Counted from the stretch's first letter, positions 14,801-59,094 are shown. The stretch is 64,000 nt of DNA from a bacterium (GCA_030650605.1 JAUSDP010000100.1:16383-80382); one strand, 5' to 3'. A program made the numbers and translations. The notes: generated by a model not told the origin, from the letters alone.

Positions 14801-15603
14801 TGTGGATCCAAGCCTCCATCGCCCTTTTCGTTTGGCCTGGATACAGTGTGCATGCACTGCACCCACATCATATTGTCGCCTTTGACCATCCATACATCTT
14901 TTTTGGGATCCACCAATTTAAGTACAGGAACATCAACTCCTGCTTCCTGGCATGCTTTGATTTCAGTGCCTGTCATTCTGTACTCAAGCAAGTATTTCTC
15001 TGTGAATTCAGCTATAGCGGTATCGCCGGCAAGGTGGCCTTTCAAGAAGTTTTCATCGTCAAACACGAGACCTTGCACTGACAAAGACTTTGAATTCGCC
15101 CAATTTCCTTCGAAGCCAATCGTAGAATTTCGTGTTTTTTTAGCGTTTTCTTTGAACGCATTGAGGTCCTTTTTTTGTGCATCTGTGAACGATTTTAGTG
15201 CTTTCTTTTGCTGGCTTTTGAACTCAGTTTTATCGATATTGGAGAGATTTTGATTTCGCAAAAAGCGATCTTTTGTTTTCTCTTGGGCGTTCACAAACTC
15301 TGCTTTTGCTAACTTATGTATGAGCTTCTGTTTCGCCAGGTCTTCATTGGGGCCTCTTTTATAGTCGCGCCTGGTAACTTGCAGCTCCGGTGAATCACCG
15401 AATTTTCCATCGAGAATTTCTGAAAAACGCTCTTCTGAATACTTTGCAAAGCGATCTCCTCCAAGTTTTTCAAGCATTTTTCCTTTAAATTGGTTGGCAT
15501 AATCAGCATGATCTCCTTCCCGATATTTCTGTTGATAGTTATCTGATTTCCTATAACTAGCTATTTGACTCGAGTTGCCAGCAAGTGCATTTTCTGTGTA
15601 CAT
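11881..15603 (-). CDS. traI: MOBF-family conjugative relaxase-helicase (TrwC/TraI-like), 1240 aa
   Basis: N-terminal Tyr-rich relaxase motif I (SYRKSDNYQQKYREGDHADYANQFKGK...LG, matching the TrwC YY...WxG pattern). 3-His motif III (LDPQIHSHSTRATH). Internal Walker A (VVLGRAGTGKST) of the TraI/RecD-like helicase domain. A K-rich insertion separates motif I from motif III. Confidence 0.85.
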   Translation of the reverse strand: MYTENALAGNSSQIASYRKSDNYQQKYREGDHADYANQFKGKMLEKLGGDRFAKYSEERFSEILDGKFGDSPELQVTRRDYKRGPNEDLAKQKLIHKLAKAEFVNAQEKTKDRFLRNQNLSNIDKTEFKSQQKKALKSFTDAQKKDLNAFKENAKKTRNSTIGFEGNWANSKSLSVQGLVFDDENFLKGHLAGDTAIAEFTEKYLLEYRMTGTEIKACQEAGVDVPVLKLVDPKKDVWMVKGDNMMWVQCMHTVSRPNEKGDGGLDPQIHSHSTRATHTVDCAGSLRAIAFGKVYENQHLLDAIGKTAERLFLEDKGYVFYDTKDGYELSGFSRNDIEVFADGSSLRIPEWISSQNKLREDPSHPKHGIYLDINSKHDRDTANAASRGGKDSFDFSAFDDPINDAATGLAAAQAWWKYKAENPLNKELHPVFIEDLRKRVELAQEYGRAHRLEKRTPELAYQMASQGLTERISTIRSKEALLTQMLKEGLYQLEPEILQQKIEEKILSGELIMQNDGRSLTTRELVECEQKIERLVKENFARFKPVCDRALFDAIVLQYEAEKGFKLSKGQKEATYMALTTTSGISVVLGRAGTGKSTSMDLLQRCAEASRVRVFGQAPSGKAKEALADSVYLREKTNGSGMDTYFPHVITTQKAALSEKWWEENIQKGSIVIIDEAGLVDARSMLELLEKANEHQCRIILSGDYDQYHSVGAGAPLKHVSDFIRGNPSENAFKELTEMQRGKDQETIKIHSLCFKSPAEGLVYMSEKNRIVVRNTEDECLKEMATYYNELTEAARDNTFCITKTNEDRRLLNIAIREKIGIEKTRGLEINSFERFGNLTTQDLRNPAQYESGSTVFFNMNSPHSPFQKGEACEVLRVEGSIVKLARTITDKNGLNPKTVEYDYSPMTQSAGVSLGVEERIKICPGERIRFTAANEKLGILNGDRGIVENIDFEKRIATVKIVSTSKIIKVPLPDQGRGLSIRWGYSATGHSSQGGTASTKIFSNPDGTKEDPTISNRAQVLMYVPRKDRGDYNSIYTNSTRSVMGPRSVVLFTDARNVEDVEKTFLEVGVKLVHDRAIEPTKEELAKRLNDEKPILLKSAFVNGNDAWNSKTRCEYIRPEKDLITGQFSKPPSLLEQLKSARETIGPEIGLMGSPKFKKQVIELIVENNLDIRITNEKGGLQALQDTLWATKNNKEALKEFAINLAEPEVEKTKIKEIEVVKIEPVREREKEKYYGREM

Positions 15604-23669: not shown

Positions 23670-25715
23670 TTAATCAGAACTTTTCTTAAGCTCTTGCAAA
23701 TTGAGTAATTGCTCGTATGAGGCATAAAAGTCTCGACTGGTGATGCTAATATGAGCGGTCCTCAATAGCTCCCTAACGAAGTCGTCTGCACTCGCAGTCC
23801 GCTCCAATAGCAACAGTATTTGAAACAGCGAGAGGCTCCAGCACCGACTAAACGGAAACCGATTCGTTAAGTCGTACTCACCTGCGCGTTTTGCTGCATC
23901 CTTAAATTTGCGGAACCATTCGTGCAGCGGCTCTAGATTTTTCTGCTGCGTAGGATCGGTTGTTTCGAAATCCATTTCGCACCCAGCGAGCAAGTAGTGC
24001 CATAAATATGGGCGGTCATGGAGGCTGAGTAGTTCCCCTCTTGTTACAGAAACTTTTAGAACTTCCTTGGAGCCAAGTTCAATAACAGATAGCTCTTCGT
24101 TAAATCTCAGCTCAATCGTTTTGTGTTCTTTGAGGAATGCATGCCGCTCCATTGCTTGTGCCTGCGGACGTGCTAGCGAATCTGCGAGATCCTCTAGCGC
24201 TTTGAGGACATCGCCTGATCTTGATTGTCTGGTTAGCACCTTCCCTTTGAGTTCAAAAAAGATAATATGGGATTCTGTCTGAATGGCCAGATCGCACTCA
24301 CTTCTCTCTGAATTATTACCATAAATACCGTAATGAATCTTTACGCCTTTTGCGGAGAACTGATCGCGTACAAACTGCTCTAATGCAAGCCCGAGTGTTT
24401 CGTCGAAGCCCTTTTTATCAGGCCATGCACGACGGCACCACTCTATGACCGCATTCAGCGTGGCGCGCGCAGCGATATTTGGAGGCAAGCGTAACAACGA
24501 TCCTTGCTCATCTATGAGAAGCGGTCGAAATGCTGCATTGACTTCGCTATCTTGAAGTGGGAATGTTAGCTTTAGATTTATTTTGCCGAAGTCGTGAGCA
24601 AATATGCGAGTGAGTAAGCGCTGAGCAGAGGGGGAATCCATTCCTCCAAGTTCCGCAAGTGCCGCAGGTGGAATTCTCTGAATCCCCGTTGGGCCGCAGG
24701 ATGTCTCCTTAAGTAGAACTATTGCCGCTGCAAGAATGTGGGGCGAATTAAATCCATCCTTATCGACCAATTTTGAAAACTGCTGATAAGTGAGCAACCA
24801 ACGAACGAAGGTTTCAACATGGTTTGGTTTTGCTTGGACGAGACAAAATGTTGCATCGTAAAGCAACGATTTTCGTGTTGTCTCTAGGATGTCTCTCGAA
24901 CGCGCAAATATCATCCCCATCGTATCGTCGGCTTCCAAGTCGAGGATTCCGACAGCAAAGGTCAGCAATCCTAAGAGCCGGGTAAATTCCGCTTGTCCAG
25001 CATCGTGGGTCTGCTTACAGTGGAAGTACTTCAGTCCCAACTGGAATAGAAATGCGAATGGAACCTGTGGCGAAGCGTCAAGACGAACCTGTTGGCCATG
25101 TCTACCTAAATTGAAACGATCTGTTGTACTGCTATATGTTGGCTCTATTTCAGCCATTGCAGTAGCTACCAGTGCTTCACCACCTAGCTTTCGCGCCAGC
25201 GTGTCAATATCTTCCTGCAGGCGTGCAACCTCTGGATCAGGCATATCTAGCCCTCCAATTTCGGGAAGAAGAATCTGGTAGCCACTATCTCGTAGGCCGT
25301 TTATCGATTTTGAAACAACCTGCGCACGCACGTCGCTTACAAGCTCCTGTTCAGGAGAACGCCAAGGCGGAAAATGCAAGTGATATCGGACTGCCGCTAG
25401 TATCGCTGATTCCCAATTTATTACTTCAGCTGCGGAAGTACCATGGACTCGTAGCGCAATTTTCAGTGCTTGCGCTACGTTTCGGTAAGGCTGCAATAAT
25501 TGTTTATCGCAAAGATGTCTAATCGCCAGCTCATGAATTATGGTCCTAACTTTTGCAAGTGCCTCCGAGGATTTTACTGGCGGAAAGTAGCTCCGAATCT
25601 CTTCAAAGAGCGCGGCTTCAGTGATGCGTTGTGCGGCTTGTGTTGTTGTTTCGAGGTGAGCGTCTGTCAGCGTCCTGAATTTTATTAAATCCATCTCATT
25701 TCCTTTTAGCCGCAT
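23670..25715 (-). CDS. Large stand-alone protein (681 aa) with a PD-(D/E)XK-nuclease-like motif
   Basis: Motif ECDLAIQTESHIIFFELKGK (D ... E-x-K), typical of the restriction-endonuclease fold, in the C-terminal half. The rest has no known domain. Monocistronic and flanked by terminator-like hairpins. Confidence 0.45.
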   Translation of the reverse strand: MRLKGNEMDLIKFRTLTDAHLETTTQAAQRITEAALFEEIRSYFPPVKSSEALAKVRTIIHELAIRHLCDKQLLQPYRNVAQALKIALRVHGTSAAEVINWESAILAAVRYHLHFPPWRSPEQELVSDVRAQVVSKSINGLRDSGYQILLPEIGGLDMPDPEVARLQEDIDTLARKLGGEALVATAMAEIEPTYSSTTDRFNLGRHGQQVRLDASPQVPFAFLFQLGLKYFHCKQTHDAGQAEFTRLLGLLTFAVGILDLEADDTMGMIFARSRDILETTRKSLLYDATFCLVQAKPNHVETFVRWLLTYQQFSKLVDKDGFNSPHILAAAIVLLKETSCGPTGIQRIPPAALAELGGMDSPSAQRLLTRIFAHDFGKINLKLTFPLQDSEVNAAFRPLLIDEQGSLLRLPPNIAARATLNAVIEWCRRAWPDKKGFDETLGLALEQFVRDQFSAKGVKIHYGIYGNNSERSECDLAIQTESHIIFFELKGKVLTRQSRSGDVLKALEDLADSLARPQAQAMERHAFLKEHKTIELRFNEELSVIELGSKEVLKVSVTRGELLSLHDRPYLWHYLLAGCEMDFETTDPTQQKNLEPLHEWFRKFKDAAKRAGEYDLTNRFPFSRCWSLSLFQILLLLERTASADDFVRELLRTAHISITSRDFYASYEQLLNLQELKKSSD

Positions 25716-25901
25716 CGTTTTGATTAATGTGATTTTATCTTCGCAAGCTCTTTTCCAGTTGGAAAATTCTCTGTCTGAGCGAATGCGAGTCGAAATCTAA
25801 AAAGGTTTTTTGAATCCGCAAAATATATCTGGAGCGCCTCGAGGACTTTCTTAATGTAAAGCCAGTACAATTGCCTATAGCTCAATCTGTGAGACGGAAA
25901 A

Positions 25902-26651
25902 ATGATTAAATTGACGATAGCGACCGCTTTGGCCGCAATGGCTTCACTTGTAAGTTTTGCTGTTTATGGCCAAGATTTGAGCAACGCTCTATCTAGATCA
26001 GTAGGAGTTGAGATCTCGTATGATTTTAAAACGTTTTCCGGTGGCGGCGTTTGGCTTGGAAACGGTGAAGTGTTGAGTGCATCTCACATTTTCATGGATG
26101 CAAAGTCTTTAACGGATCCAATCTTCGTCGTGACGCATGGAAAGAAATACAAGGCCACGCCAATTTTTCATGGCAACCCGCCTCACAACGACCTAATACT
26201 GTTGAAGATTGATGCCGCATTGGTCCCTGATTTTTTAACGAAGGCACCTGCACCACAAGTTTGTGACGAATTCGAGCCGGTGGGTGCGCAGTTGTATGTG
26301 ACCGCGCGCGAAGTTATCTACAACACCTACGCGTCACCTTATGGCGCGGTTACGTATAAGGGGAAAACGTGGGCCACATCGACAACAGCTATGTTGAGCC
26401 ATGGTGTCTCAGGAAGCCCTGTTTACGATACCGAAACAAGTTGCCTTGCCGGGATTGTTAGCCTGGGTGAATGGCGACCGATCGGGAATGTAGCGGATCC
26501 GAAACGCCTCGAATGCGAAATAGCGACGCTGCAGTTGAGGGATTCAGGAGATGGGATAACGTGCGCAGCTGAAACCAAATCTGTATTCATGACTGCTGAT
26601 GTTATTCGTGTTTTTTTGAAGGCCGCCAAGGAGTACCAGCGAACTCACTGA
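25902..26651 (+). CDS. Secreted trypsin-like (S1 family) serine protease, 249 aa
   Basis: Signal peptide. Catalytic triad contexts LSASHIF (His), NDLILLKI (Asp) and GVSGSPVYD (the GDSGGP equivalent). Confidence 0.55.
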   Translation: MIKLTIATALAAMASLVSFAVYGQDLSNALSRSVGVEISYDFKTFSGGGVWLGNGEVLSASHIFMDAKSLTDPIFVVTHGKKYKATPIFHGNPPHNDLILLKIDAALVPDFLTKAPAPQVCDEFEPVGAQLYVTAREVIYNTYASPYGAVTYKGKTWATSTTAMLSHGVSGSPVYDTETSCLAGIVSLGEWRPIGNVADPKRLECEIATLQLRDSGDGITCAAETKSVFMTADVIRVFLKAAKEYQRTH

Positions 26652-26809: not shown

Positions 26810-27076
26810 ATGTCTTACTCAAAAATCACTACCATCTGCGGTCACACATCACAAAAACCTGCAAACTGGTCTGATATGACAGCTGATCAGCGTTATGAAT
26901 GGTCGAATAAAAATCCAATGGTCAGCACTCATCGCAACGGCTTCTGGAAAACAGAAACAATCTCAAAAGTTGCGCAAAAAATGGGAATTGTTAACGAAGC
27001 TTCAGCCTCGCATTGTGTCATCGACCATTCTGGAAAAGGTCGCGGATCTAGCAAGCAATTCAAAGTATCAATTTAA
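26810..27076 (+). CDS. Small hypothetical protein, 88 aa
   Basis: ORF with the RBS ggagattcaaa ATG. Confidence 0.3.
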   Translation: MSYSKITTICGHTSQKPANWSDMTADQRYEWSNKNPMVSTHRNGFWKTETISKVAQKMGIVNEASASHCVIDHSGKGRGSSKQFKVSI

Positions 27077-27115
27077 ATTTAAAACGGCGGGGCAACCCGC
27101 CTATCGAGAAAGCAC

Positions 27116-27577
27116 ATGAACGGATCAACTCTTAAGGCTCTGCGCAGCCTTTTATTTTTCACGCAAGAAGAAGCGTCCATCTTGATTGGTGGCGTTTCTC
27201 TGCGCTCCTGGCAATATTGGGAAGTCGATAAACGGACCATCCCACAGGACGTGATCGACCGCGTTACCAGCCTCATTCTATGGCGTAAGAAGGCTATAGA
27301 AACTGTTGAGCTTGCGCTTGGCGATATGCTGGCGCATATACCAGCAGACCAACCGGTAGAGCCGCTTACCATCATTGTGTACGGCTCAGTGGAAGACTGG
27401 ATGACACTGCCAGACCGTGAACCTGTCATGTGGAAGCCACATTGTTCGGCGGTTGCGAATCTGTGTGCCTCATTCGCGGCCAGATCGATTGTATTTGACG
27501 CACCGGCCTATGCGCGATGGCTAGGCAAACGCAAAGACAATGAAACCATGCGCGGTCAATGGGCTGCTTCTGTTTAA
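27116..27577 (+). CDS. Putative HTH DNA-binding protein (DUF1870/YdiL-like N-terminus), 153 aa
   Basis: LKALRSLLFFTQEEASILIGGVSLRSWQYWE resembles a phage-type HTH. Confidence 0.35.
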   Translation: MNGSTLKALRSLLFFTQEEASILIGGVSLRSWQYWEVDKRTIPQDVIDRVTSLILWRKKAIETVELALGDMLAHIPADQPVEPLTIIVYGSVEDWMTLPDREPVMWKPHCSAVANLCASFAARSIVFDAPAYARWLGKRKDNETMRGQWAASV

Positions 27578-27644
27578 TTTTTGCAGCGCAGCACAAAATA
27601 ACGTCATCAATCATAAAATCCGCATACCCTAATAATGAAAATCC

Positions 27645-28850
27645 TTATCTGGATGAACTGTTTTTTTCTAATTTCGCTGTTTTGGGATCATAAATAAATT
27701 CAGTAATCGATCCATCCCGAATCCGATGCACAGCCTCATCGATTACACTCAACGGCACCAGGAACCACTCTCTCGGTTTCACAGGATTCCCAAATCGGTC
27801 ATCAATAGTTAAATCAAGTTGGGCGCCGGCGAAGATCCGATGAAATAAGTTTTCCAAACTGATGCGGTTCAAATTGTGAAGCTTATACGTGGCCACTACG
27901 TCGACATCAGCCAACAAATAAGTGGCATCCTTCGATGCGTTTGCAATCCTGGTCTCAACCTTCCCTCCGGTCACTCCTATTTTATGGATCAGCTCGCGAT
28001 GTTCAGTAACAAATGGATGCGTTGATTTACTCTGGAGTACATAGATGGTCCCAGTCGCAATGTCTGCCGGCTCGGCAACACTACCAAACAGTGGTCCGTC
28101 ATCCTTGCGAATGAGGCGCCGTCCAACAGGCGTGTCACCATCTGGATACAGGGATCTGGAAAGAGATCTCAATAACAAGTTACCTTCAGTCCCGTTATCA
28201 AAAATAACCCGCAGCCGAGGGTTATCGCGCCCATCCTTGGTCTTATTGGCGTCGTTCATTTCGGCGACGTAAGATGTCTGGCCACTGACAATATAGAAAT
28301 CTCCCACATTGATACTGGCATCCTTAGCGAATGGCTTCGTCATCCAGGTGCCGGCTTTGAGTCCAGATATGGCTTCATCGAACAAATGTTTGAAATTATC
28401 GAAATCCGCGCACGGAGTTCGATTTGCGACTTCTTCAGCGGCCTGAATTTCAACACTGGAGCGAACATGGCGCAAAACTCGGATGTCATTTTCATCCGTG
28501 AGCTCAGTGCTAATCCCGAGCTCAGCAAGTAATGCGTCCTCGTCTAAGCTATCGACATCAACTGCATTTGCTACGACACCAGAAAGCAGCCCGGGTCCAT
28601 CCATAGCGCCCAGCAGAGATTGAGCTTCTGGTAACTTACGAATTTGATCGAGCCGAACAGCATAAATGCGCTCGAAAATATCACCGCTCTCTCCATGCAA
28701 TGGGGCTCGGCCGTGTGCCTGATGGAATCGCAGAATATCTTCGAAGCCAGCAATAATGCGTTCTTCGCGCGCAGTTCGACTTGATACCTTAATCGGAGTG
28801 GCATCAATGCCAAGCGCATCTAGAAGTTCATCATCATTCATTTCAGCCAT
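27645..28850 (-). CDS. T5orf172 / GIY-YIG-like (MUG113-type) domain protein, third gene of the MTase-helicase operon, about 401 aa
   Basis: C-terminal GIY-YIG/T5orf172 signature (GTIYVLQS ... HKIGVTGG ... REWFLV). The chosen ATG at 28850 overlaps the helicase stop (ATGGCTGA). The longer ORF from 29015 would run 170 bp into the helicase gene. Confidence 0.6.
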   Translation of the reverse strand: MAEMNDDELLDALGIDATPIKVSSRTAREERIIAGFEDILRFHQAHGRAPLHGESGDIFERIYAVRLDQIRKLPEAQSLLGAMDGPGLLSGVVANAVDVDSLDEDALLAELGISTELTDENDIRVLRHVRSSVEIQAAEEVANRTPCADFDNFKHLFDEAISGLKAGTWMTKPFAKDASINVGDFYIVSGQTSYVAEMNDANKTKDGRDNPRLRVIFDNGTEGNLLLRSLSRSLYPDGDTPVGRRLIRKDDGPLFGSVAEPADIATGTIYVLQSKSTHPFVTEHRELIHKIGVTGGKVETRIANASKDATYLLADVDVVATYKLHNLNRISLENLFHRIFAGAQLDLTIDDRFGNPVKPREWFLVPLSVIDEAVHRIRDGSITEFIYDPKTAKLEKNSSSR

Positions 28851-30954
28851 TGCTTGAATCCTTTTGCGATTGAGCTGCTTTAGCTTGGGAATATCTGGTA
28901 AAAGCAGCGACGCCTTCGGCCATACGTTTTTCCCAGGCATCCGACGAATTGATATCCGGCAGGCGGCCTCGTTCATTTTTAAACTGAACCGCTCGCCTCG
29001 CAAGGTCGCGAGCATCTTCTTCAGAAATATTTACTCTCTTAGCAGCAATTGTCGCTTGGACTTGTCTTAAAGATTTTTCGTCCATCGCCTTCGCTAAAAC
29101 AGCGTAGGCGGCATCGAAAGGGTTAATGCGATCGATCAGATCGATATCAAGATCACGAACATTAATGAATTTACGGACCCCATCAAGAAACGCTGAGTTA
29201 CCTGGTGGCGTGCCATCATTAGCATCAACTTTAGCCAACTCCAGCTTCGCTTGCTGGGTTACATTCATCGCCGCGATGGCATGTTGACGGATTGATTCCT
29301 GATCAGTATCACTTAAATCTGGGTAACGCTCCCGCACGATCTTACCCATATGGAGTTGAGTGAGTTCTTCTGGTAACGTGTTTTCTTTATCAAAGAGACC
29401 GCGCTCCAAAACTGTTTTCTCTTGTAAAAAACTGGTCACAACTTCGTTTAGGTCTTCCTTGCAGATACGTGTAGCCTCGGGGCTTTGAGGTTTTACCAGC
29501 CCATTGATCTCCACGTGGATCTGACCGGTTTCTTTGTTGACGCCAACGTTTTTACCGTCTTCCTTGTAGCCATCGTCACCGTAATCAAAACCTTCCTTCG
29601 GTCCTGCATTTTTAGGCGTGAACTCATACCGTGGTGCCAAAACTTGTTCCATCAGAAGACTGGCAGAGATTGCCTTGAGCATGTCATTCACGGCTTCAGC
29701 GACAAGTGATTGCTCGGCTGCCGGTTCTGCAATCAAGTTTGTGAAACGGGAACGCTCTTTACCCTCAGCATCACGAGTCGCACGACCAATAATCTGAACG
29801 ATTTCAGTTAAGCTGCTTCTGTAACCTACTGTCAAAGCGTGCTCACACCAAATCCAATCGAAGCCTTCTTTTGCCATGCCGAGGGCAATAATGACATCCA
29901 CGAAATCGCGGTTATTTTTTTGTTTAGGATCTTTTAACGCCGTGAGTACATTCGATCGCTTAGCTTGATCGCTGTCATCTACCAGATCGGCTACTTTCAA
30001 TATGCGGCCATCTTTAGTTTGGACCAGATGAAAACCTGTAATAGGGTCGACACCTTTCCAGTCTCCCATTCCGTGCATGATGTCATTCACTTCGCGCTGC
30101 TTGTCTTTGAGGCTTTCACGCGCATTCACGTTAGGAATGTGAACGATAGTTTTCAAAGAGGGATCTAAAACTTTGTGGATTGCATCAACATAAGGACCGG
30201 TGTAGAAAAAATAACCGATGTCCAGTGATTTGAGCCATTGATACCCATTGAGCTGCTCGTAATACGTGTATGTGATCGTTTCGAATTTGGACTCATCTGT
30301 TGGTGACATCACCGCTTCACTGTCACCACGGAAGTAGGAGCCCGTCATAGCAACCAAGTGCGCCTTATCTCGGGCGATGAGAGCACCTAATTGAGCGCCC
30401 AACTTATTGTCGGGGTTGCTGGAAACATGGTGAAATTCATCAATAGCAACCAGGCGGTCATCAAACGCTTGAATGCCTAGCTCTTCCACCGCGAACCTGA
30501 ATGTGGCATGAGTACAAACGAGAACCTTATCGGCTCCTTCCAAAAACTGTTTTACCGCGTCCACTTTTGACTTAGCCACACGTGGCTCATCGACGCCTGG
30601 TGCGTTGCACAGGTTCCATTGTGGTTCGACTTTCCAATCCCAATAGAACCCAAACTTACTCAAAGGTTCATCGGCAAAGCTGCTTCCAATGGAGCGCTCT
30701 GGTACCACGACGATTGCTTGTTTGAGACCTTGATTATTGATTTTATCGAGCGCGATGAACATGAGGGCTCGGGATTTACCAGATGCCGGAGGTGACTTGA
30801 TCAGCAGATATTGTTCACCACGTTTGGCATAAGCGCGCTCTTGCATGGTACGCATCCCCAGCTCGTTTGCTTTGCTGGATGCGCCGGTGCACGCAGTCGC
30901 AATCGATACTGATGGAACCGTGTATTTATTCGTCGGATTGCTCGATTGATCCAT
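28843..30954 (-). CDS. SF2 DEAD/DEAH-box helicase (restriction Res/HsdR-like motor without a recognisable nuclease domain), 703 aa
   Basis: Motif I KSPPASGKS, motif II VAIDEFHH and motif VI QIIGRATRD. The start codon overlaps the MTase stop (TAATG). Confidence 0.75.
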   Translation of the reverse strand: MDQSSNPTNKYTVPSVSIATACTGASSKANELGMRTMQERAYAKRGEQYLLIKSPPASGKSRALMFIALDKINNQGLKQAIVVVPERSIGSSFADEPLSKFGFYWDWKVEPQWNLCNAPGVDEPRVAKSKVDAVKQFLEGADKVLVCTHATFRFAVEELGIQAFDDRLVAIDEFHHVSSNPDNKLGAQLGALIARDKAHLVAMTGSYFRGDSEAVMSPTDESKFETITYTYYEQLNGYQWLKSLDIGYFFYTGPYVDAIHKVLDPSLKTIVHIPNVNARESLKDKQREVNDIMHGMGDWKGVDPITGFHLVQTKDGRILKVADLVDDSDQAKRSNVLTALKDPKQKNNRDFVDVIIALGMAKEGFDWIWCEHALTVGYRSSLTEIVQIIGRATRDAEGKERSRFTNLIAEPAAEQSLVAEAVNDMLKAISASLLMEQVLAPRYEFTPKNAGPKEGFDYGDDGYKEDGKNVGVNKETGQIHVEINGLVKPQSPEATRICKEDLNEVVTSFLQEKTVLERGLFDKENTLPEELTQLHMGKIVRERYPDLSDTDQESIRQHAIAAMNVTQQAKLELAKVDANDGTPPGNSAFLDGVRKFINVRDLDIDLIDRINPFDAAYAVLAKAMDEKSLRQVQATIAAKRVNISEEDARDLARRAVQFKNERGRLPDINSSDAWEKRMAEGVAAFTRYSQAKAAQSQKDSSNG

Positions 30955-33734
30955 TATGCTTTCTTCCCTTTTTTTGTAATTTTGGCGCCAACAGCTGTCA
31001 TCTTTGTGTATAGATCAAATAGTTTTTCTAATCGTTCTGTATCGTTCTTGAAGCGCCGTCCAATATAGATCCGCTCTATAACTTCGTCGTTTCGTTCATG
31101 GGCAAGACGCAGGTTTTCAGGCATCTTATCCGGATCGTACAAGTCGGCGATGGTAGATGGAAAATGTGTCTCGCGTGCCAATAAAATGTTTTCGGCGCTT
31201 GCGGTCAGGTCTGCCTTGTTCTGTTCAGTGAGAAGAGGGATGGGGAAGGTGTTCCAGCCAAGTTCGTTTGAGTAGCGAAAATCAGTCTTCAGCTGCCCAC
31301 AAATAGTTGCAATCCACGATAAATGCAGCTTTGAAACTAGAATCGCAAGTTGCCAAAGCGGGGCATCAAAAATCGCAAACGCCTCACTAGAAACTGTGCT
31401 ATCTGTTGCTATCAAACCAGCGGGTAAGTAACGGCGAGACTCTGAAGATGTTCTTGGCATCACTACCGTGTGGACGCTGGCACCACGCATTTCTCTCAAT
31501 TGATGTGCCCGCGCAGCCATTGCTCTTCCACCTGAATCGGTACTATTCAAGCGCATTTCTTTTACCGCATTCACACGAAGTCTAATGCCAGGTATTAGCA
31601 TCGCTTCTGGAAAATTTTCGTCTTCAATCCAAAGACAGTATCTACTTAATCCGTTTGTGAACTCCTTCGACCCGTAAATCCTTCGAATAAAGCTCTGACG
31701 CTGTGCTTTAGTCAGATTTAACTCGATGAGTTCATCACGGGAAAGTAGCAGGCTGCCACCGTCATACGGCATGTTGCCCAAGTCCATATTTGACAAACCG
31801 TTTATAGGTTTTGAACTCTTTTCAATGAGTACGTTTGCCCCCCCAACAAGATAGGCATTTATGAATGAAACATCCTTTGCCAGTAACTCACCTTCGTCTG
31901 TTATCGAGTAGATCTTTCGGGCAGTCCGTGCCTCTCTCGAAAGTCCGATGATTGCGACTATCACGCCAGCATTGTGGGCGGCTAAATTTTTCCACTTAAA
32001 GGACGTGTGTGCAAAGCTGATCTCATACTGATCTCCAAAAATCTGCGGCCAAATCAATGGAACTTGATGACCTCTGGAAATAGAATTTGTTGAAACAAAA
32101 GCACATGATGCGTTGGTGCTTTTACCGTAGTCAACAGCTTTAATAAACCAACATCCGACATAGTCGATATAGCCATGCTTGACACCACGTGGGCCAAAAA
32201 TATTTTCCATGTCGGAGATCTGCTGCGCTGATTTCTTACCTTTGCCCGCATATGGTGGATTGCCGCAAATGTACGTTTCCCCCCCTTCGTTCTCGAAGTC
32301 AATTTCTACCTGATTCAGCGGAGTACCAAACAAATCATCTGCCACCAGCTTCACGCCTGTTCCCGTGGGCGGGCAAATACTTAGCCAATCCAAACGAAGG
32401 GCGTTACCGCAAACAATCCAGTTTTGCGCATCGAGCGGAAGAAACTCTGCCAAGGCATCCTGTTGACCTCGATAAAGTACGTCACACTGAAACTCTGCAA
32501 TGATGAGCGCCAGGCGTGCTATCTCCGCAGGAAAGTCACATAGCTCAATTCCTCTATAGTTCGTTAGTGGAATTTCACTGCCTTGATGTTGTTCACCGCG
32601 CCGCCGATTAATTTCACCTTCGATCTCACGCATCTGCTTATAGGCGATAACTAGGAAGTTCCCGGATCCACACGCCGGATCGAAAACACGAATCCGCGCA
32701 ATACGTTTCCGCAGATTCAAAAGCTTCCGATCGTTTTCCCCGGCCTCGTCCAACTGCGCCCGCAGGTCATCAAGGAATAGAGGATTCAACACCTTCAAAA
32801 TATTGGGCACACTGGTGTAGTGCATTCCAAGAGAACCACGCATTTCCTCATTGGAAACAGCCTGGATCATGCTTCCGAATATATCCGGATTGATCTCTTT
32901 CCAATTCAATCCACCGGTATGCAGCAGGTAGGTACGCGCCATACGAGTGAATCGTGGAACATCTGTACTGCCAGAGAAGAGACCACCATTCACATAAGGA
33001 AATCCGGCAATCCAAGTAGCCAAACGAGGTTTGGCTCCAGCACGTTCGGCAACCTTAATATTCATGGATCTGAAAATTTCGGATACCACTTCATGAGTGT
33101 TCAAACCATCGCGGTCACTAATTTGCTCGACAGTTTTCGTAAAGAGGCCGTTACCTTCGAAGATATTAGTATCCTCAGCAAAAAAACAGAACACAAGGCG
33201 CGCCATAAAGTGATTCATGTCTTGGCGGCGCTCTTCTTTTGCCCACTCTGGATTCTCACGCAAGAGCTCGACATACAGCTTGTTCAGGCGCCCAGTCGCA
33301 CGTACGTCAACTGGATTGTCTTTGATCTCTTTGATCGTCGAGATGCCAGCCAGTGGCAGGAAGAAACCAAAATGGTTTGGGAAATCTTGATAAGCGCACG
33401 CGATTGTCTCGCCACCATTTAAATCTTCGGATTCCAGACTCTGACCATCGGTGGCCAAAATGAATTTGGCTTTAGCTTTTGTTGTTGTCGAGCTGGCGCG
33501 CAGCGCTTTAAGGGTTTCGCCCACACTACCGGCATCACAAACTGCGATATGGATATTATTCCGTTGGAGTACGCCGCCAGAAACATCGGAAGCGTTGTTA
33601 TTTCCCGATCGCAGACGCTGAAGTGTTGTGTCCTTATTTCCAAAGGCGGCAAGAAAGTGATACGGGAACTCAGTAGCATCAAAGGGTTGGAGCGCTAAAT
33701 TCGAAACGGCTTCTTCTATTTCTACAGCGTTCAT
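30954..33734 (-). CDS. Gamma-class N6-adenine DNA methyltransferase with a long C-terminal target-recognition region (MmeI/PglX/type IIG-like architecture), 926 aa
   Basis: AdoMet motif I VFDPACGSGNFLV and catalytic motif IV CGNPPYAG. Roughly 300 aa N-terminal to the MTase core and roughly 350 aa C-terminal to it. Confidence 0.8.
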   Translation of the reverse strand: MNAVEIEEAVSNLALQPFDATEFPYHFLAAFGNKDTTLQRLRSGNNNASDVSGGVLQRNNIHIAVCDAGSVGETLKALRASSTTTKAKAKFILATDGQSLESEDLNGGETIACAYQDFPNHFGFFLPLAGISTIKEIKDNPVDVRATGRLNKLYVELLRENPEWAKEERRQDMNHFMARLVFCFFAEDTNIFEGNGLFTKTVEQISDRDGLNTHEVVSEIFRSMNIKVAERAGAKPRLATWIAGFPYVNGGLFSGSTDVPRFTRMARTYLLHTGGLNWKEINPDIFGSMIQAVSNEEMRGSLGMHYTSVPNILKVLNPLFLDDLRAQLDEAGENDRKLLNLRKRIARIRVFDPACGSGNFLVIAYKQMREIEGEINRRRGEQHQGSEIPLTNYRGIELCDFPAEIARLALIIAEFQCDVLYRGQQDALAEFLPLDAQNWIVCGNALRLDWLSICPPTGTGVKLVADDLFGTPLNQVEIDFENEGGETYICGNPPYAGKGKKSAQQISDMENIFGPRGVKHGYIDYVGCWFIKAVDYGKSTNASCAFVSTNSISRGHQVPLIWPQIFGDQYEISFAHTSFKWKNLAAHNAGVIVAIIGLSREARTARKIYSITDEGELLAKDVSFINAYLVGGANVLIEKSSKPINGLSNMDLGNMPYDGGSLLLSRDELIELNLTKAQRQSFIRRIYGSKEFTNGLSRYCLWIEDENFPEAMLIPGIRLRVNAVKEMRLNSTDSGGRAMAARAHQLREMRGASVHTVVMPRTSSESRRYLPAGLIATDSTVSSEAFAIFDAPLWQLAILVSKLHLSWIATICGQLKTDFRYSNELGWNTFPIPLLTEQNKADLTASAENILLARETHFPSTIADLYDPDKMPENLRLAHERNDEVIERIYIGRRFKNDTERLEKLFDLYTKMTAVGAKITKKGKKA

Positions 33735-33840: not shown

Positions 33841-33876
33841 TACGGTACATGATAATTATTATTATCATGTACCGTA
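33841..33876. promoter_or_regulatory. 36-bp perfect palindrome about 105 bp upstream of the MTase-helicase-T5orf172 operon (candidate operator)
   Basis: tacggtacatgataat tatt attatcatgtaccgta has 16-bp perfectly complementary arms. It is the only such element in the 550-bp leader. Confidence 0.45.
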
Positions 33877-34290: not shown

Positions 34291-34746
34291 CTAAGCTGCT
34301 TCCTCAGTCTCTTCAATTTTAGAAATCCATTTATTTCTGGATTCTTTCACAATGATTTTTGTATTGGAAATGCGGTCCAGTAAATTCATGGTGTTGATCA
34401 TGGCTGACACTTTTTCATTGCCATTAGCGTCTGCTGAGTATAATGAGCGCAAGTAAAATTCAATCGCTTTAGGTATCTTTCCGCTTTTTTCCCATATCGC
34501 TACGGCTTGTTCTGTATAACCAAGTTTTTGACCAATTGCCTTTTGAGAAAGCAGCAACGCGCTACGAATATAGCGAAATTCCGCTCCCGTCAATTTGCTT
34601 GGTTTTTTAATTAAAGCAAGGCAAATAGCTTTGGTCAGTCCATCAGCATCATGAAAAGAAACACCTTTCCCGTACTTGGTGTCGCATTCAACGTAACCAT
34701 TCTCTAACCATACATTGCGCAAGCCACCGTCAGTATAGTGAAACAT
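34291..34746 (-). CDS. HTH (XRE-type) antitoxin-like protein, 151 aa
   Basis: LTGAEFRYIRSALLLSQKAIGQKLGYTEQAVAIWEKSGKIP is an HTH. It lies immediately downstream of, and co-oriented with, the small toxin-like gene. Confidence 0.5.
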   Translation of the reverse strand: MFHYTDGGLRNVWLENGYVECDTKYGKGVSFHDADGLTKAICLALIKKPSKLTGAEFRYIRSALLLSQKAIGQKLGYTEQAVAIWEKSGKIPKAIEFYLRSLYSADANGNEKVSAMINTMNLLDRISNTKIIVKESRNKWISKIEETEEAA

Positions 34747-34756
34747 AATAATCCTC

Positions 34757-35068
34757 TTAAAAGGCTGTAATCAGCACCAGATATGGGTCGTCGTCATCAA
34801 GCGCAACAACCATTTTTATTTCCTGCCCTGCAACAAAATATTCCATTCGACATTCAATATTTCCCTTTGCGTAATTAATCTCAGGCGTCAAATTAATTTT
34901 ACCGTTGCGCAATGTTTCAAAGGCCATACTGTTTGTAATCTTTCTTTCCTTCATTCGTTTCAGCGCATGAATAGTAAATACAACATTGACTGATTGAATG
35001 GACTCAGAGCGAATATGCGCTTGCAACTGCGGAGTTGACCATTTTAGTTTTGAATGTTTGGAAGCCAT
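34757..35068 (-). CDS. DUF4258-like small toxin-like protein, 103 aa
   Basis: FTIHALKRMKERKIT matches the conserved H..RM.ER.I segment of the DUF4258 family. The toxin-first gene order resembles HigB/HigA and MqsR/MqsA. Confidence 0.4.
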   Translation of the reverse strand: MASKHSKLKWSTPQLQAHIRSESIQSVNVVFTIHALKRMKERKITNSMAFETLRNGKINLTPEINYAKGNIECRMEYFVAGQEIKMVVALDDDDPYLVLITAF

Positions 35069-38378: not shown

Positions 38379-39365
38379 CTACTGATTGCTAAGAACAAGA
38401 TTTCTTAAGGCGTCAATCATTAGGCTGTTAACCACATTCTTATCTATATTTTCGTCCTTTATATCAATAACGATTTGATTATTTTTAATTTTCACAGTGA
38501 ACATAGAATCTCCCTGTAAATTTGAAACAATCGTAGGCTTAACAATCGGACTACGACTACGGTTCAATAATGCTCGTTCCACGAATGATCGTAAATCATC
38601 ACTGTTAAGTTCGTTATTATCAATAAGCTGCTCAATGCCCTGAGTTATTGTATCGATGCCTAACGGAAATTCCTTCATTAAATCTGAGACGACAACTCCA
38701 TATCGATATCCAAAAAGCCCAGGATATTTATCAAGAATATCTTTGACTTCGAGTGGCAAAGATAAAAGACTTAAACATTGCGAGACTCGAGCTTGAGTGC
38801 AACCAAATAAACGAGCAACCTCAGTTTGGTTTTTTGCAAATCCACGATCCACACTTTTGCGGTAGGCTAAACCCTTTTCATAGTCAGTAAGGTCTACCCG
38901 TCCTTCATTGCTAACTAAAGTTGCAAGCTCGGCATCGCGGTCATTTAAAACAACTATTTGGGCCTTTATGGTGCTCCAGCCAATTAACCTGGCAGCACGT
39001 ACTCGACGATGGCCTGCAATAAGCTCAAAACGCCCCGTAGGGAGTTTTCTAACGATAATTGGATCGTCTTGCCCTCGATCCTGAAGCATCTCTCCTAATG
39101 CCTGAATATAACCTTCATCGTACCTAGAACGTGGTTGCCATGGCGAGTCATCAACTAAATTGACTGCAATTGTTTCAATGTAGTTATTACCATCTTGATT
39201 TACTAATTGAGCATTTTGAGTGTCTTCGATTAAAGCCTCTAAGCTTTTCGAATTGGTAGATGGAGGCTTGGTCATTACCATGCCATTATTTTTTGTCGCC
39301 ATATCTTGCTGAAACTTCCTTCTCAGCTCATCGTTAAATTCAGCTTCGGTTTTCTTTTGATTCAT
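38379..39365 (-). CDS. parB: ParB-family partition protein, 328 aa
   Basis: ParB N-terminal box IVRKLPTGRFELIAGHRRVRAARL. 4-nt overlap with parA upstream. Confidence 0.8.
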   Translation of the reverse strand: MNQKKTEAEFNDELRRKFQQDMATKNNGMVMTKPPSTNSKSLEALIEDTQNAQLVNQDGNNYIETIAVNLVDDSPWQPRSRYDEGYIQALGEMLQDRGQDDPIIVRKLPTGRFELIAGHRRVRAARLIGWSTIKAQIVVLNDRDAELATLVSNEGRVDLTDYEKGLAYRKSVDRGFAKNQTEVARLFGCTQARVSQCLSLLSLPLEVKDILDKYPGLFGYRYGVVVSDLMKEFPLGIDTITQGIEQLIDNNELNSDDLRSFVERALLNRSRSPIVKPTIVSNLQGDSMFTVKIKNNQIVIDIKDENIDKNVVNSLMIDALRNLVLSNQ

Positions 39366-40441
39366 AAGACACCCATACGGCCAACGAGAGCCTGTGCAAC
39401 AGCACGCAACTCCACAGAAGCATTACTGCTTGGTTTCGCGACAGCTAATGGCAATTCATAATCTTCAGAAGATAGAACCTTTTTAAATTCTTCAGAGCTA
39501 CTAATCGATTTATCAACCCAAGAATCTTTATATTGATTCACCAAAGTAATAACTTGGGCGGCAACTCGCAATCTAGTCTTATCGTAGAAATTACCCAGAA
39601 TTAACAACTCAGGATACTTTCCTAAGCTACTTTCCATTTCTCCCAAAACTTTCGCTAAATAAGAAACCGATTTTGTACTGTATCTTTCCATAGATACTGG
39701 AGCTACTACATAATCACTGGCTAATAATGCACCCCTGGTCGTTTGATTTTTAGCTGGGGGAGCATCAAAAAGAATAACGTCGTAGGACGATAAATCAAGA
39801 TCAGGATTTGTTCCGTTCATACCTTCATACAAAAATTTGGCAATTGTAGTTTCAGGATTTTTACCCATGATCGTGTCAAGTGTGAAAAGTGCTTCTAGTC
39901 TGTCCAAGCTGACCTCGCTTGGTATCAGATGAGGACCGAATTCTCCGAAGGGCTTTTTGATAACATCATTTAACGGTGGAGTTGATGAAGCCTGCCATTG
40001 CGGCATCAAATGTCCGAAATGATAGTCAATACATTTATCGATTGGAATGTTGTCGTCTAGAGCTTGTTCATGCGTAAGTTCTGCGTCATAACCGAATGAC
40101 ATAGATAAATTAGCTTGAAAATCGAGATCAATAACTAAGGTTTTCAGCCCCATTAATGGGAAAAGTGTGCTTAAATTTGAAGCTACCGTAGTTTTTCCAA
40201 CCCCACCTTTTGGAGCGTAAATTGTCATAATGACTTTACGTTTTGGTGTGAGACCAATTTTCTTAGCTCTAAATCTCGCTAATTCAAAAATGTTTTCAAT
40301 ACTGAAAAGACGAGTTTTAGGACCATCACCAGTCTGTCTTTGAATAAGAATTCCTGATTCGTCTGTATCACGTCGAATGGAATCTACAGTTGTTCCGAGC
40401 AAGTTTGCAACTGCTTGAACCTTGAAAGGTTTGCGTTCCAA
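39362..40441 (-). CDS. parA: ParA-family partition ATPase (type Ia, with N-terminal HTH-like extension), 359 aa
   Basis: Deviant Walker A box TIYAPKGGVGKTTVASN. About 100-aa N-terminal extension. Confidence 0.85.
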   Translation of the reverse strand: MERKPFKVQAVANLLGTTVDSIRRDTDESGILIQRQTGDGPKTRLFSIENIFELARFRAKKIGLTPKRKVIMTIYAPKGGVGKTTVASNLSTLFPLMGLKTLVIDLDFQANLSMSFGYDAELTHEQALDDNIPIDKCIDYHFGHLMPQWQASSTPPLNDVIKKPFGEFGPHLIPSEVSLDRLEALFTLDTIMGKNPETTIAKFLYEGMNGTNPDLDLSSYDVILFDAPPAKNQTTRGALLASDYVVAPVSMERYSTKSVSYLAKVLGEMESSLGKYPELLILGNFYDKTRLRVAAQVITLVNQYKDSWVDKSISSSEEFKKVLSSEDYELPLAVAKPSSNASVELRAVAQALVGRMGVL

Positions 40442-40671
40442 GATAAGTCTCCAGTATTTAAGAGACTAAATGGTAGCCAATAAAAATTGTTTTTGCAAGG
40501 ATTTTTAGTTTTTTTTAGAAATATCCTAGCAAACAAATATTTTTCTGAATCTATAGACTAATCATTGAAAACAACAACAAGCATCTGTTGTTGTTTATTT
40601 TTAAAAACAACATCTTTAAAAACGTTTACGTTACTAAGACCCTTTATACATGCGGCTCTCAGCTTAGATAC

Positions 40672-40860
40672 AGCATAGTATCCGGGTTGAAATGACATAG
40701 TTTTAGGGAAAAAGTCGTTTCAAATAGCAGAGTTTACGGGAGGTAAAATTGTCAGAAAGCATAGTTTCAGGGATGATTTGCAAGTAAAAGCATACTTTCA
40801 GGGATGTCGCAAAAATGATACTGAAATAGCATATTTCTAAAAAATGGAATATGCTATTTC
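40672..40860. repeat. Replication origin iterons (about 5 copies of AGCATAGTTTCAGGGA-like 16-mers) plus inverted-repeat operator upstream of the rep gene
   Basis: Units begin near 40672, 40695, 40723, 40759 and 40790. The inverted repeat aaatagcatattt / aaatatgctattt at 40824-40858 contains the AGCATA half-site. An AT-rich tract with the hairpin aacaacaaca ... tgttgttgtt lies at 40572-40600. Confidence 0.6.
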
Positions 40861-40885
40861 AAAATTTATATAATTCTTAAAATTA

Positions 40886-42094
40886 ATGTCAAACGAAATT
40901 ATCCCAAAAAAAGAATTAAAAAAACACGTCGCGACCATACACACGAGCGGTGTCCTTTCGTTCACAGAGCGTAAGCTTTTAAACGTATTGTTGCTGAATG
41001 CATTCGATAATTTACTCGATAAAAGAATTCATAGTATCCCTGTAAAGTTATTGCTGCCGCTCATAGGCTGGGCCGATAGTTTGAATACGGTGGATCTCAA
41101 AAAATCTCTCTCCAAACTGACAACTACAGAAGTCAAATTTGACTTGCTTGGTGATTCAAAAGAGGAATGGGGTACTACTGCTTTTCTTGCGCACGCAAAA
41201 ATTAAAGATGGCGTTTGTACGTACGAATATAGTTCGTTTCTTTCTACAAAAATGGCGAACCCAGAAATTTATGGAACCATTAATGTGTCAATGCAAAATC
41301 AATTTTCAGGTGGCTATGCTCTGAACCTTTATGAGAACTGTAAGCGTTTCAGAAAAGTGGGTTCCACTGGGTTTATTGAAGTCAGCAAGTGGAAAGATTT
41401 ACTGGGTGCCTCTGCTCCGATGTATGACGACTTTAGACATTTCTCAAATCACGTCATCAAAAAAGCGATGAATGAGATCAATAAGGTCTCCGATATTCAT
41501 ATTGAAGTCGTATATCAAAGACACATGAGGAAAGTTACTCATTTAAAATTTTTGATTACTGATAATTCGCAGCGGTCGATCTATGAAATTGCGATGGAAA
41601 CGCAAGAAAGCGGGTTAGATTTACTCCGTGAAACTAAGGCTTATAAACGATTATTTGAACATGGTATAGGCGATAAACTTGCTCTCTCAATGATCAACGA
41701 GCAGGGTGAGAATAAGATAAATGATCTTATCGATTACGTAGAAAACAAGGACAAGAAAAAGCAAATAAAAGGATCTACCGCTGGATATATTCGGGTACTT
41801 GTTGAGTCCGGTGCGACGGTGACCACTACTGCATATGAAGCCGGAAAACGAAAGAAAGAAATCGAAGAGAATGCGGCGATTAATACGATTGAAAAATCTG
41901 AAATTTCAAAGCAAGAAACCTTTAAGAAATTATTAAAGGTAATGACACTAGAGCAGAAGATTGAATGGGCTCAGAAATATTTTTCGTTAGAAGGCGCCGG
42001 GAAAGAAGCAAATTTCAATGTTGAAAAAGGTGAGTTTTCTAAGGGGGAGCCAAACATTCATTTCATGAGTTGGATGAGAAAACAAAATATTTGA
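40886..42094 (+). CDS. Rep_3-like iteron-binding plasmid replication initiator, 402 aa
   Basis: N-terminal LSFTERKLLNVLLLNAF resembles the conserved winged-helix segment of the Rep_3 family. Sits directly downstream of the iteron cluster. Confidence 0.65.
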   Translation: MSNEIIPKKELKKHVATIHTSGVLSFTERKLLNVLLLNAFDNLLDKRIHSIPVKLLLPLIGWADSLNTVDLKKSLSKLTTTEVKFDLLGDSKEEWGTTAFLAHAKIKDGVCTYEYSSFLSTKMANPEIYGTINVSMQNQFSGGYALNLYENCKRFRKVGSTGFIEVSKWKDLLGASAPMYDDFRHFSNHVIKKAMNEINKVSDIHIEVVYQRHMRKVTHLKFLITDNSQRSIYEIAMETQESGLDLLRETKAYKRLFEHGIGDKLALSMINEQGENKINDLIDYVENKDKKKQIKGSTAGYIRVLVESGATVTTTAYEAGKRKKEIEENAAINTIEKSEISKQETFKKLLKVMTLEQKIEWAQKYFSLEGAGKEANFNVEKGEFSKGEPNIHFMSWMRKQNI

Positions 42095-44281: not shown

Positions 44282-45088
44282 CTATTCAATCTCCAAGACT
44301 TCAATTAAGCAAGCCCACTGAAATCCCGGATTCTCAAATTTAAGTTCTTTCGTCGATGCAGCATTGTTACGATTTCTGGCATATCCGAGGGGGTTCGCTA
44401 CAACCCGGCATCCATTTACGACATAATCAAAACTATCGTGCACATGCCCGTGCAGCCATAGGCTTGTTTTCCCTAATAGCTCTTCGAGATTCCCGCTAAC
44501 GAATGCGGCATTCAACGGTTCCCCGATATAGCGCGGGTGGACCGACGATGGGTGAGGTCCGTGATGGGTTACGACAACTGTCTTGCCGTCGTAAGGGGTA
44601 TTCAATTGGTTTAGCAGCCATGCTCGTGACTTATTATGTTCTCCTAGCGCGTGGGCTGGCATAAACACACCTCCGCGTGTTTTTATAATGCGATGGTCAT
44701 TTAGGCTTAGTTCTGCCACTTCCATTAACTGTCGTTGCGTCCTATTACATGGCAGTAGGTAGTCAGTCCACATCGTGCAGCCTAAGAACCTAACGCCGCC
44801 GAAATCCACTACAGAGTTATCCATAAATCGAACAGATGTGCCCTCAGCAGCGCGGTGGAGATCTTCGCGTAGCTTTTCGAACGAATACCCATAGAATTCA
44901 TGGTTGCCAGCTAAATACAGCACAGGCACCGGCCAGTCGTGGAACAACTCTATCGCCTCGGTGCCATTCGATATATCTCCAGCGAGCACGAGTGCGTCTG
45001 CGCCAGCTGCCGGCGAAATTAGCCGTGTTCCAGGAGAATCCCTCTGAAAAAACTCGAGATGTAAATCGGATGCAAGTTGAATTTTCAT
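44282..45088 (-). CDS. Calcineurin-like metallophosphoesterase, 268 aa (paralog 1 of 4)
   Basis: The five MPP motifs in order: SDLHLE, LAGDISNG, LAGNHEFYG, VVTHHGP and HGHVHDS. Confidence 0.7.
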   Translation of the reverse strand: MKIQLASDLHLEFFQRDSPGTRLISPAAGADALVLAGDISNGTEAIELFHDWPVPVLYLAGNHEFYGYSFEKLREDLHRAAEGTSVRFMDNSVVDFGGVRFLGCTMWTDYLLPCNRTQRQLMEVAELSLNDHRIIKTRGGVFMPAHALGEHNKSRAWLLNQLNTPYDGKTVVVTHHGPHPSSVHPRYIGEPLNAAFVSGNLEELLGKTSLWLHGHVHDSFDYVVNGCRVVANPLGYARNRNNAASTKELKFENPGFQWACLIEVLEIE

Positions 45089-59084: not shown

Positions 59085-59094
59085 TTTTATTGTT

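Follow-up and report, generated by a model that had tools for sequence, protein, structure and literature searches.

A three-gene operon on the minus strand of a 64,000-nucleotide (nt) bacterial sequence (GCA_030650605.1 JAUSDP010000100.1:16383-80382; referred to here as the window, with positions counted from its first nucleotide) is almost certainly a member of the DnmA/YeeA-YeeB-YeeC (YeeABC) cluster. The operon lies at positions 27645-33734. Its assignment follows from the encoded proteins: gene 1 carries the domains of MmeI without the PD-ExK motif, and the products of genes 2 and 3 share clear sequence identity with YeeB and YeeC. We also consider it fairly probable, overall, that the operon both belongs to this family and acts by a restriction mechanism. 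An initial annotation, made from the sequence alone, had proposed an undescribed defence operon, a split system resembling type III/ISP or BREX in which the GIY-YIG protein could supply the nuclease missing from the helicase. Read as a split, type I/III-like restriction or defence system, this proposal agrees with the domain content and with a published hypothesis. The claim of novelty is not supported, since the triad has already been described as YeeA/YeeB/YeeC (PMC2731913) and as dnmA-yeeB-yeeC (PMC7261158, PMC9973331). The family has been known since 2009, and is genetically validated and biochemically uncharacterised.

Morgan et al. 2009 divided MmeI homologs into two sets, the second of which lacks the PD-ExK motif and is "invariably" flanked by genes for a YeeB-like DEAD helicase and a YeeC-like GIY-YIG protein (PMC2731913). 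Members of this second set are defined as similar to MmeI beyond the first ~100 residues and different from it within those first residues. Expression of YeeA, or of a homolog from Moraxella, on its own yielded no endonuclease activity, and the authors proposed that YeeABC works in a type I-like manner with modification of a single strand (PMC2731913). Nye et al. 2020 identified GACGAG as the site at which B. subtilis YeeA (DnmA) makes N6-methyladenine (m6A), on one of the two strands, and observed that B. subtilis transformation was not restricted (PMC7261158). Conserved synteny of dnmA-yeeB-yeeC was shown in that study and by Fernandez et al. 2023, who also described a defence-island context for the cluster (PMC9973331). 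In V. crassostreae, single-gene inactivation by Piel et al. 2021 showed that only yeeAB mediated resistance to one phage group (bioRxiv 10.1101/2021.05.05.442762).

Organisation of the operon

The genes and the domains discussed below are the following (aa, amino acids):
30954..33734, minus strand: gene 1, 926 aa, YeeA/DnmA-like MmeI-family gamma-class N6-adenine DNA methyltransferase with a fused target-recognition domain and without the PD-ExK catalytic motif
33258..33734, minus strand: N-terminal domain of gene 1 (residues 1-159), restriction-endonuclease-like fold without (D/E)xK, strongly conserved; proposed docking/communication module for the helicase and nuclease
31233..31841, minus strand: target-recognition domain of gene 1 (residues 632-834), Pfam MmeI_TRD at 1e-76, the hypervariable part of the operon
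28843..30954, minus strand: gene 2, 703 aa, YeeB-like superfamily 2 (SF2) DExH helicase/translocase
27645..28850, minus strand: gene 3, 401 aa, YeeC-like, presumed nuclease subunit
27717-28052, minus strand: C-terminal T5orf172/GIY-YIG-superfamily domain of gene 3 (residues 267-378), from Pfam

The three genes are intact and form one operon, chained by stop/start overlaps as the initial annotation had stated. The gene 1 stop and gene 2 start meet in TAATG, within ...GCATAATGGAT..., and the gene 3 start and gene 2 stop meet in ATGGCTGA, within ...AGCAATGGCTGAAATG.... All of the peptide motifs that had been quoted for the three proteins are present in the translations (FDPACGSGNFLV and GNPPYAG; KSPPASGKS, DEFHH and QIIGRATRD; GTIYVLQS, HKIGVTGG and REWF). 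The mechanical open reading frame (ORF) for gene 3 spans 27645..29015. The true start is most likely at position 28850, where an ATG overlaps the stop codon of gene 2, because homologs are ~396 aa long and an independent call on an identical public contig gives a protein of 401 aa.

To place these features among relatives, we used the best 80 of at least 593 confirmed gene 2 relatives, from a scan of one genome per species. These loci were retrieved with gene 2 alone, and genes 1 and 3 were then placed by tblastn. Genes 2 and 3 share an identical 8-nt overlap in 55 of 78 loci, and in all but two they are separated by ≤32 nt. Conservation of motifs was counted over 64 homologs of gene 1, 81 of gene 2 and 76 of gene 3. 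The proteins were also compared with the Pfam, PADLOC 2.0 and NCBIfam libraries, and searched by sequence against the PDB and PLSDB plasmids.

Gene 1 resembles MmeI without its nuclease motif

Gene 1 contains the complete, ordered set of five Pfam domains of MmeI (MmeI_N at residues 1-159, MmeI_hel at 171-253, MmeI_Mtase at 328-609, MmeI_TRD at 632-834 and MmeI_C at 838-914; E-values 1e-110 to 2e-18), in agreement with its earlier reading as an N6-adenine methyltransferase of the MmeI type. The PADLOC REase_MTase_IIG model matches it over its full length (2e-279), the sequence of the MmeI crystal structure (5hr4) matches residues 89-915 (phmmer, 1e-128), and close relatives bear the NCBI name 'type IIL restriction-modification enzyme MmeI'.

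The N-terminal PD-ExK motif of MmeI consists of D70, E80 and K82. The alignment between the two proteins starts at residue 89 of gene 1 and residue 108 of MmeI, with a single sequence and with a 45-sequence profile alike; since it starts only there, the catalytic D/E/K stretch of MmeI has no detectable counterpart in gene 1. We take H62 and A64 of gene 1 to occupy the positions expected for E and K. Residues 1-120 contain no (D/E/Q)xK, so the earlier failure to recognise a PD-(D/E)XK motif in the N-terminus stands, and among the 64 homologs such tripeptides are scattered, non-conserved and found in only six. A structure model of the N-terminal domain nonetheless predicts a restriction-endonuclease-like fold. 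By these features, together with its partner genes, gene 1 is classed as a YeeA/DnmA-type protein.

Conservation is unevenly distributed along gene 1. DPACGSG and NPPY are invariant in the 64 homologs. When conservation is computed in blocks of 40 aa, the methyltransferase core reaches 0.75-0.87, as against 0.29-0.47 at about residues 600-800; nowhere else in the operon is conservation as low as in the recognition domain. A hypervariable recognition domain combined with invariant catalytic motifs is the usual pattern of specificity diversification in restriction-modification systems.

Genes 2 and 3 encode YeeB-like and YeeC-like proteins

Gene 2 was expected to encode an SF2 motor without a C-terminal nuclease domain, and its Pfam matches are of this kind: DEAD, ResIII and Helicase_C, each with a modest score, and no nuclease domain. 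GKS, DEFHH, TGS and QxxGRxxR are invariant in the 81 homologs. BLASTP aligned gene 2 with B. subtilis YeeB at 46% identity over 636 aa and with V. crassostreae YeeB at 44% over 698 aa (E = 0 for both), and gene 3 with the YeeC proteins of the same two species at 35% (5e-51) and 33% (3e-50), respectively; the YeeB and YeeC references were transcribed from machine-read text of Fig. S5 of PMC9973331, and a few of their residues may be wrong. For both proteins, the alignment with the active Vibrio counterpart extends almost to the C-terminus of the latter. One stretch of gene 2 (~residues 647-695), within a conserved C-terminal region, is shared with Vibrio YeeB but missing from the B. subtilis protein, a difference that Fernandez et al. 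2023 suggested might explain the inactivity of the B. subtilis system (PMC9973331).

Gene 3 has a T5orf172/MUG113 match in Pfam at residues 267-378, which confirms the C-terminal domain that had been recognised in the initial annotation. T5orf172 is a member of the GIY-YIG clan. GxIY, HKIG, R301, E333 and H337 are invariant in the gene 3 homologs, and position 361 is E in 75 of 76. Gene 3 matched no NCBIfam family and nothing in PADLOC; gene 2 matched no NCBIfam family and only marginally the PADLOC models PbeA, Cas3 and SngC.

YeeB is a compact family: at 50% clustering it has 464 representatives at E ≤ 1e-30, many of them fragments. Among the long representatives, no fusion to a partner gene was found, and one has an LRR_5 tail. 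A weak motif, F..(E/H)(R/H)GR.P....D.(W/F)E(K)R., occurs in gene 2 at residues 640-685 (28843-29040) and in gene 3 at residues 22-70 (28640-28790). A repeat shared between the gene 2 C-terminus and the gene 3 N-terminus was considered and set aside, as the hhalign match (E = 0.0016, probability 16%) is too weak to claim. Pfam scores the stretch in gene 2 as a 'pseudomurein-binding repeat', and PGAP has named some homologs after it; for YeeB homologs this name is probably a misnomer.

The three genes travel together

Gene order 1-2-3 on the same strand was found in 74 of the 80 loci, which shows that the triad is conserved together in other genomes. Five of the remaining six loci end at a contig edge, and one, in an Aquabacterium metagenome-assembled genome (L036, 1708-4086), is rearranged: its helicase breaks off near residue 683, where unrelated DNA takes over, and no gene 3 follows. 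This locus is a decayed copy of the system. Hosts of the 80 loci include Alpha-, Beta- and Gammaproteobacteria, Acidobacteria, Armatimonadota and Tumebacillus, and gene 2 identity among these best 80 of at least 593 relatives is 70-87%. Relatives of gene 2 also occur on 266 PLSDB plasmids; on one, Acidovorax p1-T1, the triad adjoins a VapBC pair. Homologs of gene 3 form at least 8000 clusters at 90% identity. Phage genomes hardly carry the family.

The window operon shares with the B. subtilis DnmA-YeeB-YeeC and V. crassostreae YeeABC clusters the order and orientation of the three genes, an MmeI-like methyltransferase without PD-ExK, and a location among mobile-element and toxin-antitoxin genes. 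With the phage-protective Vibrio system it further shares full-length C-termini of genes 2 and 3. It differs from both clusters in being plasmid-borne, in belonging to a tight clade whose gene 2 proteins keep the identity given above across phyla, and in the target-recognition domain of gene 1. Given this last difference, its specificity is presumably not that of the known YeeA proteins.

About half of the related loci contain additional, defence-type genes between genes 1 and 2. Same-strand cargo of 0.4-3.2 kb is present there in 39 of 73 loci, usually beginning 4 nt before the end of gene 1 and thus overlapping its stop codon (examples: L014, ~6880-8000; L004, 6154-8000; L061, 6245-8000). 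The cargo families are YhcG/DUF1016 PDDEXK (17 loci), SLFN_AlbA_2 with HATPase_c_4 (eight loci), GmrSD_N, FRG, RhuM, AAA_21 and PDDEXK_4. None of the loci examined for cargo has any between genes 2 and 3, and the window operon has none between genes 1 and 2. Because cargo sits only between genes 1 and 2, we suggest that the operon consists of two modules, one for recognition and modification (gene 1) and one for restriction (genes 2 and 3). In type I operons, auxiliary defence genes are likewise embedded between the modification and restriction modules.

Comparison with known systems

The initial annotation had noted that the layout is unlike those of canonical type I, III, ISP, BREX and DISARM systems, and the comparison bears this out, since the defining features of each are missing.

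MmeI itself (type IIL/IIG, PDB 5hr4) is homologous to gene 1 in its helical spacer, gamma-class methyltransferase, recognition and C-terminal domains, and makes single-strand m6A, as would be expected of gene 1 too. Unlike gene 1, it has an N-terminal PD-ExK nuclease, and it has no helicase or GIY-YIG partners and no need for ATP. We therefore rejected a single-chain enzyme of the MmeI type as the classification of gene 1: the catalytic motif is absent, and helicase and T5orf172 partners accompany it in 74 of 80 loci.

The operon has in common with type I (HsdMSR) and type III (Mod/Res) systems that a separate recognition/modification part is combined with an SF2 ATP-dependent motor; loss of the methyltransferase is tolerated in those systems and in YeeABC alike. 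Type III systems methylate only one strand, as expected for the operon. In contrast to both types, specificity in the operon resides in a domain of the methyltransferase itself and there is no HsdS; nor does the motor have a PD-(D/E)XK domain, the presumed nuclease being a separate protein of the GIY-YIG superfamily. Type I, in which HsdR joins a PD-(D/E)XK nuclease to the SF2 motor, was rejected because the operon has no hsdS-like ORF, its recognition domain is fused to gene 1 and its motor lacks a nuclease. Type III, with a nuclease domain on its Res subunit, and type ISP, with all activities in a single polypeptide, were rejected because the operon encodes three separate proteins, with no nuclease domain on the motor and a candidate nuclease of the GIY-YIG type.

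PglX of BREX and DrmMI of DISARM are large gamma-class N6-adenine methyltransferases, and weak PADLOC and NCBIfam matches mark them as distant relatives of gene 1. For BREX, the NCBIfam PglX models scored 21-27 bits against cut-offs of 400-900, and there is no PglZ, BrxC or BrxL. For DISARM, there is a partial DrmMI match to the C-terminal half of gene 1 (5e-22), no DrmA, DrmB (DUF1998) or DrmC, and no match of gene 2 to the DrmA helicase. Both were rejected.

A proposed mechanism and its alternatives

On the strength of sequence and literature, we lean towards a three-subunit, type I/III-like, ATP-dependent restriction system in which the host would be protected by single-strand m6A. Gene 1 would recognise a short asymmetric site through its fused hypervariable recognition domain, and would methylate one adenine on one strand, as do MmeI and B. 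subtilis DnmA. Its N-terminal fold, having lost the ExK residues, may have been retained to recruit or activate the other two proteins. Bound at its site in foreign DNA that lacks the modification, the gene 1 protein would load the gene 2 DExH motor for ATP-driven translocation or remodelling, and the tightly co-translated gene 3 protein would cut the DNA with its GIY-YIG-type T5orf172 domain. Methylation of a single strand makes it probable that cleavage depends on two cooperating sites, a requirement shared with MmeI and type III enzymes; this would prevent self-restriction after replication. Among the homologs, little or no variation is seen in the catalytic motifs of the methyltransferase, the helicase or the GIY-YIG-like domain, and we read this conservation as a likely sign of an active system. 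Loss of the methyltransferase is tolerated (PMC9973331, PMC7261158), as would be expected if restriction needs the methyltransferase for targeting.

Several observations weigh against this mechanism. DNA cleavage, ATPase activity and complex formation have never been shown biochemically for any YeeABC member, and sequence searches of the PDB with genes 2 and 3 found no relatives, so that YeeB and YeeC relatives have no structure there. The structure model of gene 3 is of low confidence (predicted local distance difference test, 57.5). At the position of the second GIY-YIG tyrosine, gene 3 has His (HKIG, residues 287-290, nt 27981-27992), as do 76 of 76 close homologs, whereas YK(I/V)G is found in YeeC of B. 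subtilis and of V. crassostreae; this His might nevertheless serve as a general base. For T5orf172, a role in DNA binding instead of cleavage has been put forward as well, the B. subtilis cluster neither restricted transformation nor protected the host from any of three phages, and phage genomes show no depletion of the DnmA motif (PMC9973331).

Some of these observations would be accommodated by defence without cutting at recognition sites, the main alternative, which we regard as rather unlikely. The system would act like BREX, through a methylation-guided block of phage replication, or through abortive infection, and the helicase and T5orf172 proteins would bind or remodel DNA, or degrade it non-specifically once triggered; we consider this role for the two proteins equally unlikely. 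The absence of motif avoidance in phages and the annotation of T5orf172 as a DNA-binding module (PMC9973331) are in keeping with such a system, as are the specificity of the Vibrio protection for one phage group (bioRxiv 10.1101/2021.05.05.442762) and the weak matches of gene 1 to the PglX and DrmMI methyltransferases. However, the candidate catalytic Y, R and E of gene 3 are invariant or nearly so in a domain of the GIY-YIG clan. The operon also has no BREX or DISARM partner genes, the proteins of genes 2 and 3 match no PADLOC models for such systems, and the architecture (recognition methyltransferase, SF2 motor, nuclease) parallels that of types I and III.

It is improbable that gene 1 is an epigenetic, orphan methyltransferase that regulates expression, with genes 2 and 3 decayed and no longer restricting. 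This is the conclusion that was reached for the B. subtilis cluster, which altered neither transformation nor phage killing nor the efficiency of plating, and whose motif is not depleted in phages (PMC9973331, PMC7261158). Decay is difficult to reconcile with three intact ORFs whose catalytic motifs are so uniformly kept in 64-81 homologs, or with the spread of those homologs by horizontal transfer across phyla and plasmids. Moreover, the C-terminal stretch lacking in B. subtilis YeeB is retained in gene 2, genes 2 and 3 align to near the Vibrio ends, and the Vibrio homolog defends against phage (bioRxiv 10.1101/2021.05.05.442762).

We think it very improbable that gene 1 is a self-contained type IIG/IIL enzyme of the MmeI type with unrelated helicase and T5orf172 neighbours, although automatic tools would report it as such: despite the full-length REase_MTase_IIG match, the 'type IIL' naming of relatives and the predicted nuclease-like N-terminal fold, gene 1 has no (D/E)xK, its residues 1-88 cannot be aligned to the MmeI catalytic region, YeeA-type proteins alone lack endonuclease activity (PMC2731913), and the three genes, which are translationally coupled, keep their synteny in 74 of 80 loci.

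Returning to the restriction mechanism, a broader formulation is possible, which we put forward only tentatively and with considerable doubt. YeeABC may be a mechanistically distinct class of ATP-dependent restriction, in which a dead PD-(D/E)XK-fold domain on a hemimethylating methyltransferase licenses a DExH motor and a GIY-YIG nuclease, and in which the junction of genes 1 and 2 is a dedicated slot for auxiliary defence genes (YhcG/DUF1016, AlbA_2-HATPase, GmrSD and others).

Genomic context of the operon

The window is plasmid-like, as had been proposed for it. It encodes two Rep_3 initiators, ParA/ParB, a relaxase of the TrwC/MobF type, HipA and a tyrosine recombinase with DUF3701. Features outside the operon are as follows:
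38379-42094 and 57858-60680: genes for Rep_3-type initiators, with a ParB-like gene close to both and ParA as well at one of them
11881-15603: TrwC/MobF relaxase
9009-10352: HipA
34291-35068, minus strand: toxin-antitoxin-like pair on the upstream side of the operon, DUF4258 protein (103 aa) and MqsA-like helix-turn-helix protein (151 aa)
26810-27577, plus strand: toxin-antitoxin-like pair on the downstream side, 88-aa ORF and Aca2/YdiL-like protein (153 aa), converging on the operon

Because two separate Rep_3 initiators lie near ParB-like genes, and a relaxase and HipA are also present, we suggest that the window is a cointegrate or multi-replicon plasmid. Megablast of the operon with 24 kb of flank found no match among PLSDB plasmids or E. 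coli genomes, and protein searches with the Rep_3 initiator and the relaxase returned matches of 23-34% identity only, with no close relative in PLSDB. The identical public sequence mentioned above comes from the Logan assembly of SRR13727527, where it lies on a contig of 80.7 kb. G+C content is 47-48% in the operon and the flank next to it (26-34 kb), as against 36-46% in most of the window, a contrast that is compatible with separate acquisition of the operon region.

The toxin-antitoxin-like modules that the initial annotation had placed beside the operon are supported by domain matches to DUF4258 and MqsA on one side, and by the 88-aa ORF and Aca2/YdiL on the other. Two minus-strand ORFs on the downstream side, 27079-27429 and 27426-27614, were discounted as probable shadows of the plus-strand Aca2/YdiL gene. 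The DUF4258/MqsA-like pair ends in a terminator-like hairpin (34265-34244), and a perfect inverted repeat with 16-nt arms, TACGGTACATGATAAT-N4-ATTATCATGTACCGTA, lies at 33841-33876, ~110 nt upstream of gene 1, where it overlaps the -10 hexamer of a promoter-like site, TTGACG-18-GATAAT. Promoter and terminator scans showed no enrichment over shuffled sequence, and neither the hairpin nor the promoter-like site is used as evidence here. The palindrome had been reported previously and is real. It occurs once in the window and is absent upstream of all 63 homologous operons checked; we therefore rejected it as a conserved operator, and it is not part of the conserved system.

At 23670-26651, beside the downstream toxin-antitoxin pair and the operon, a 681-aa ORF without a Pfam or NCBIfam match is divergent from a gene for a 249-aa trypsin-like peptidase. 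Three calcineurin-like metallophosphoesterase genes (268, 268 and 566 aa) lie at 44282-45088 and 53115-57382 on the minus strand, two of them clustered on that strand with short ORFs that lack annotation; the cluster may be another defence or nucleotide-signalling module. At 4020-8580 on the plus strand, a 965-aa ORF without a Pfam match is followed by a gene for a 405-aa protein with a PNP_UDP_1 phosphorylase domain, a pairing that, by analogy, recalls nucleosidase-type defence effectors.

Implications for the YeeABC family

The window adds one more member to a family that is very widespread, with at least 8000 clusters for gene 3, at least 593 relatives of gene 2, and carriage on 266 plasmids. 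The family is invisible to both PADLOC 2.0 and NCBIfam, in which the helicase and the T5orf172 protein have no family-level match. Since PADLOC scores the YeeA-type methyltransferase as a complete type IIG system, counts of type IIG systems are probably inflated. As an intact, plasmid-borne copy with Vibrio-like, full-length C-termini, the operon described here would be a reasonable candidate for reconstitution.

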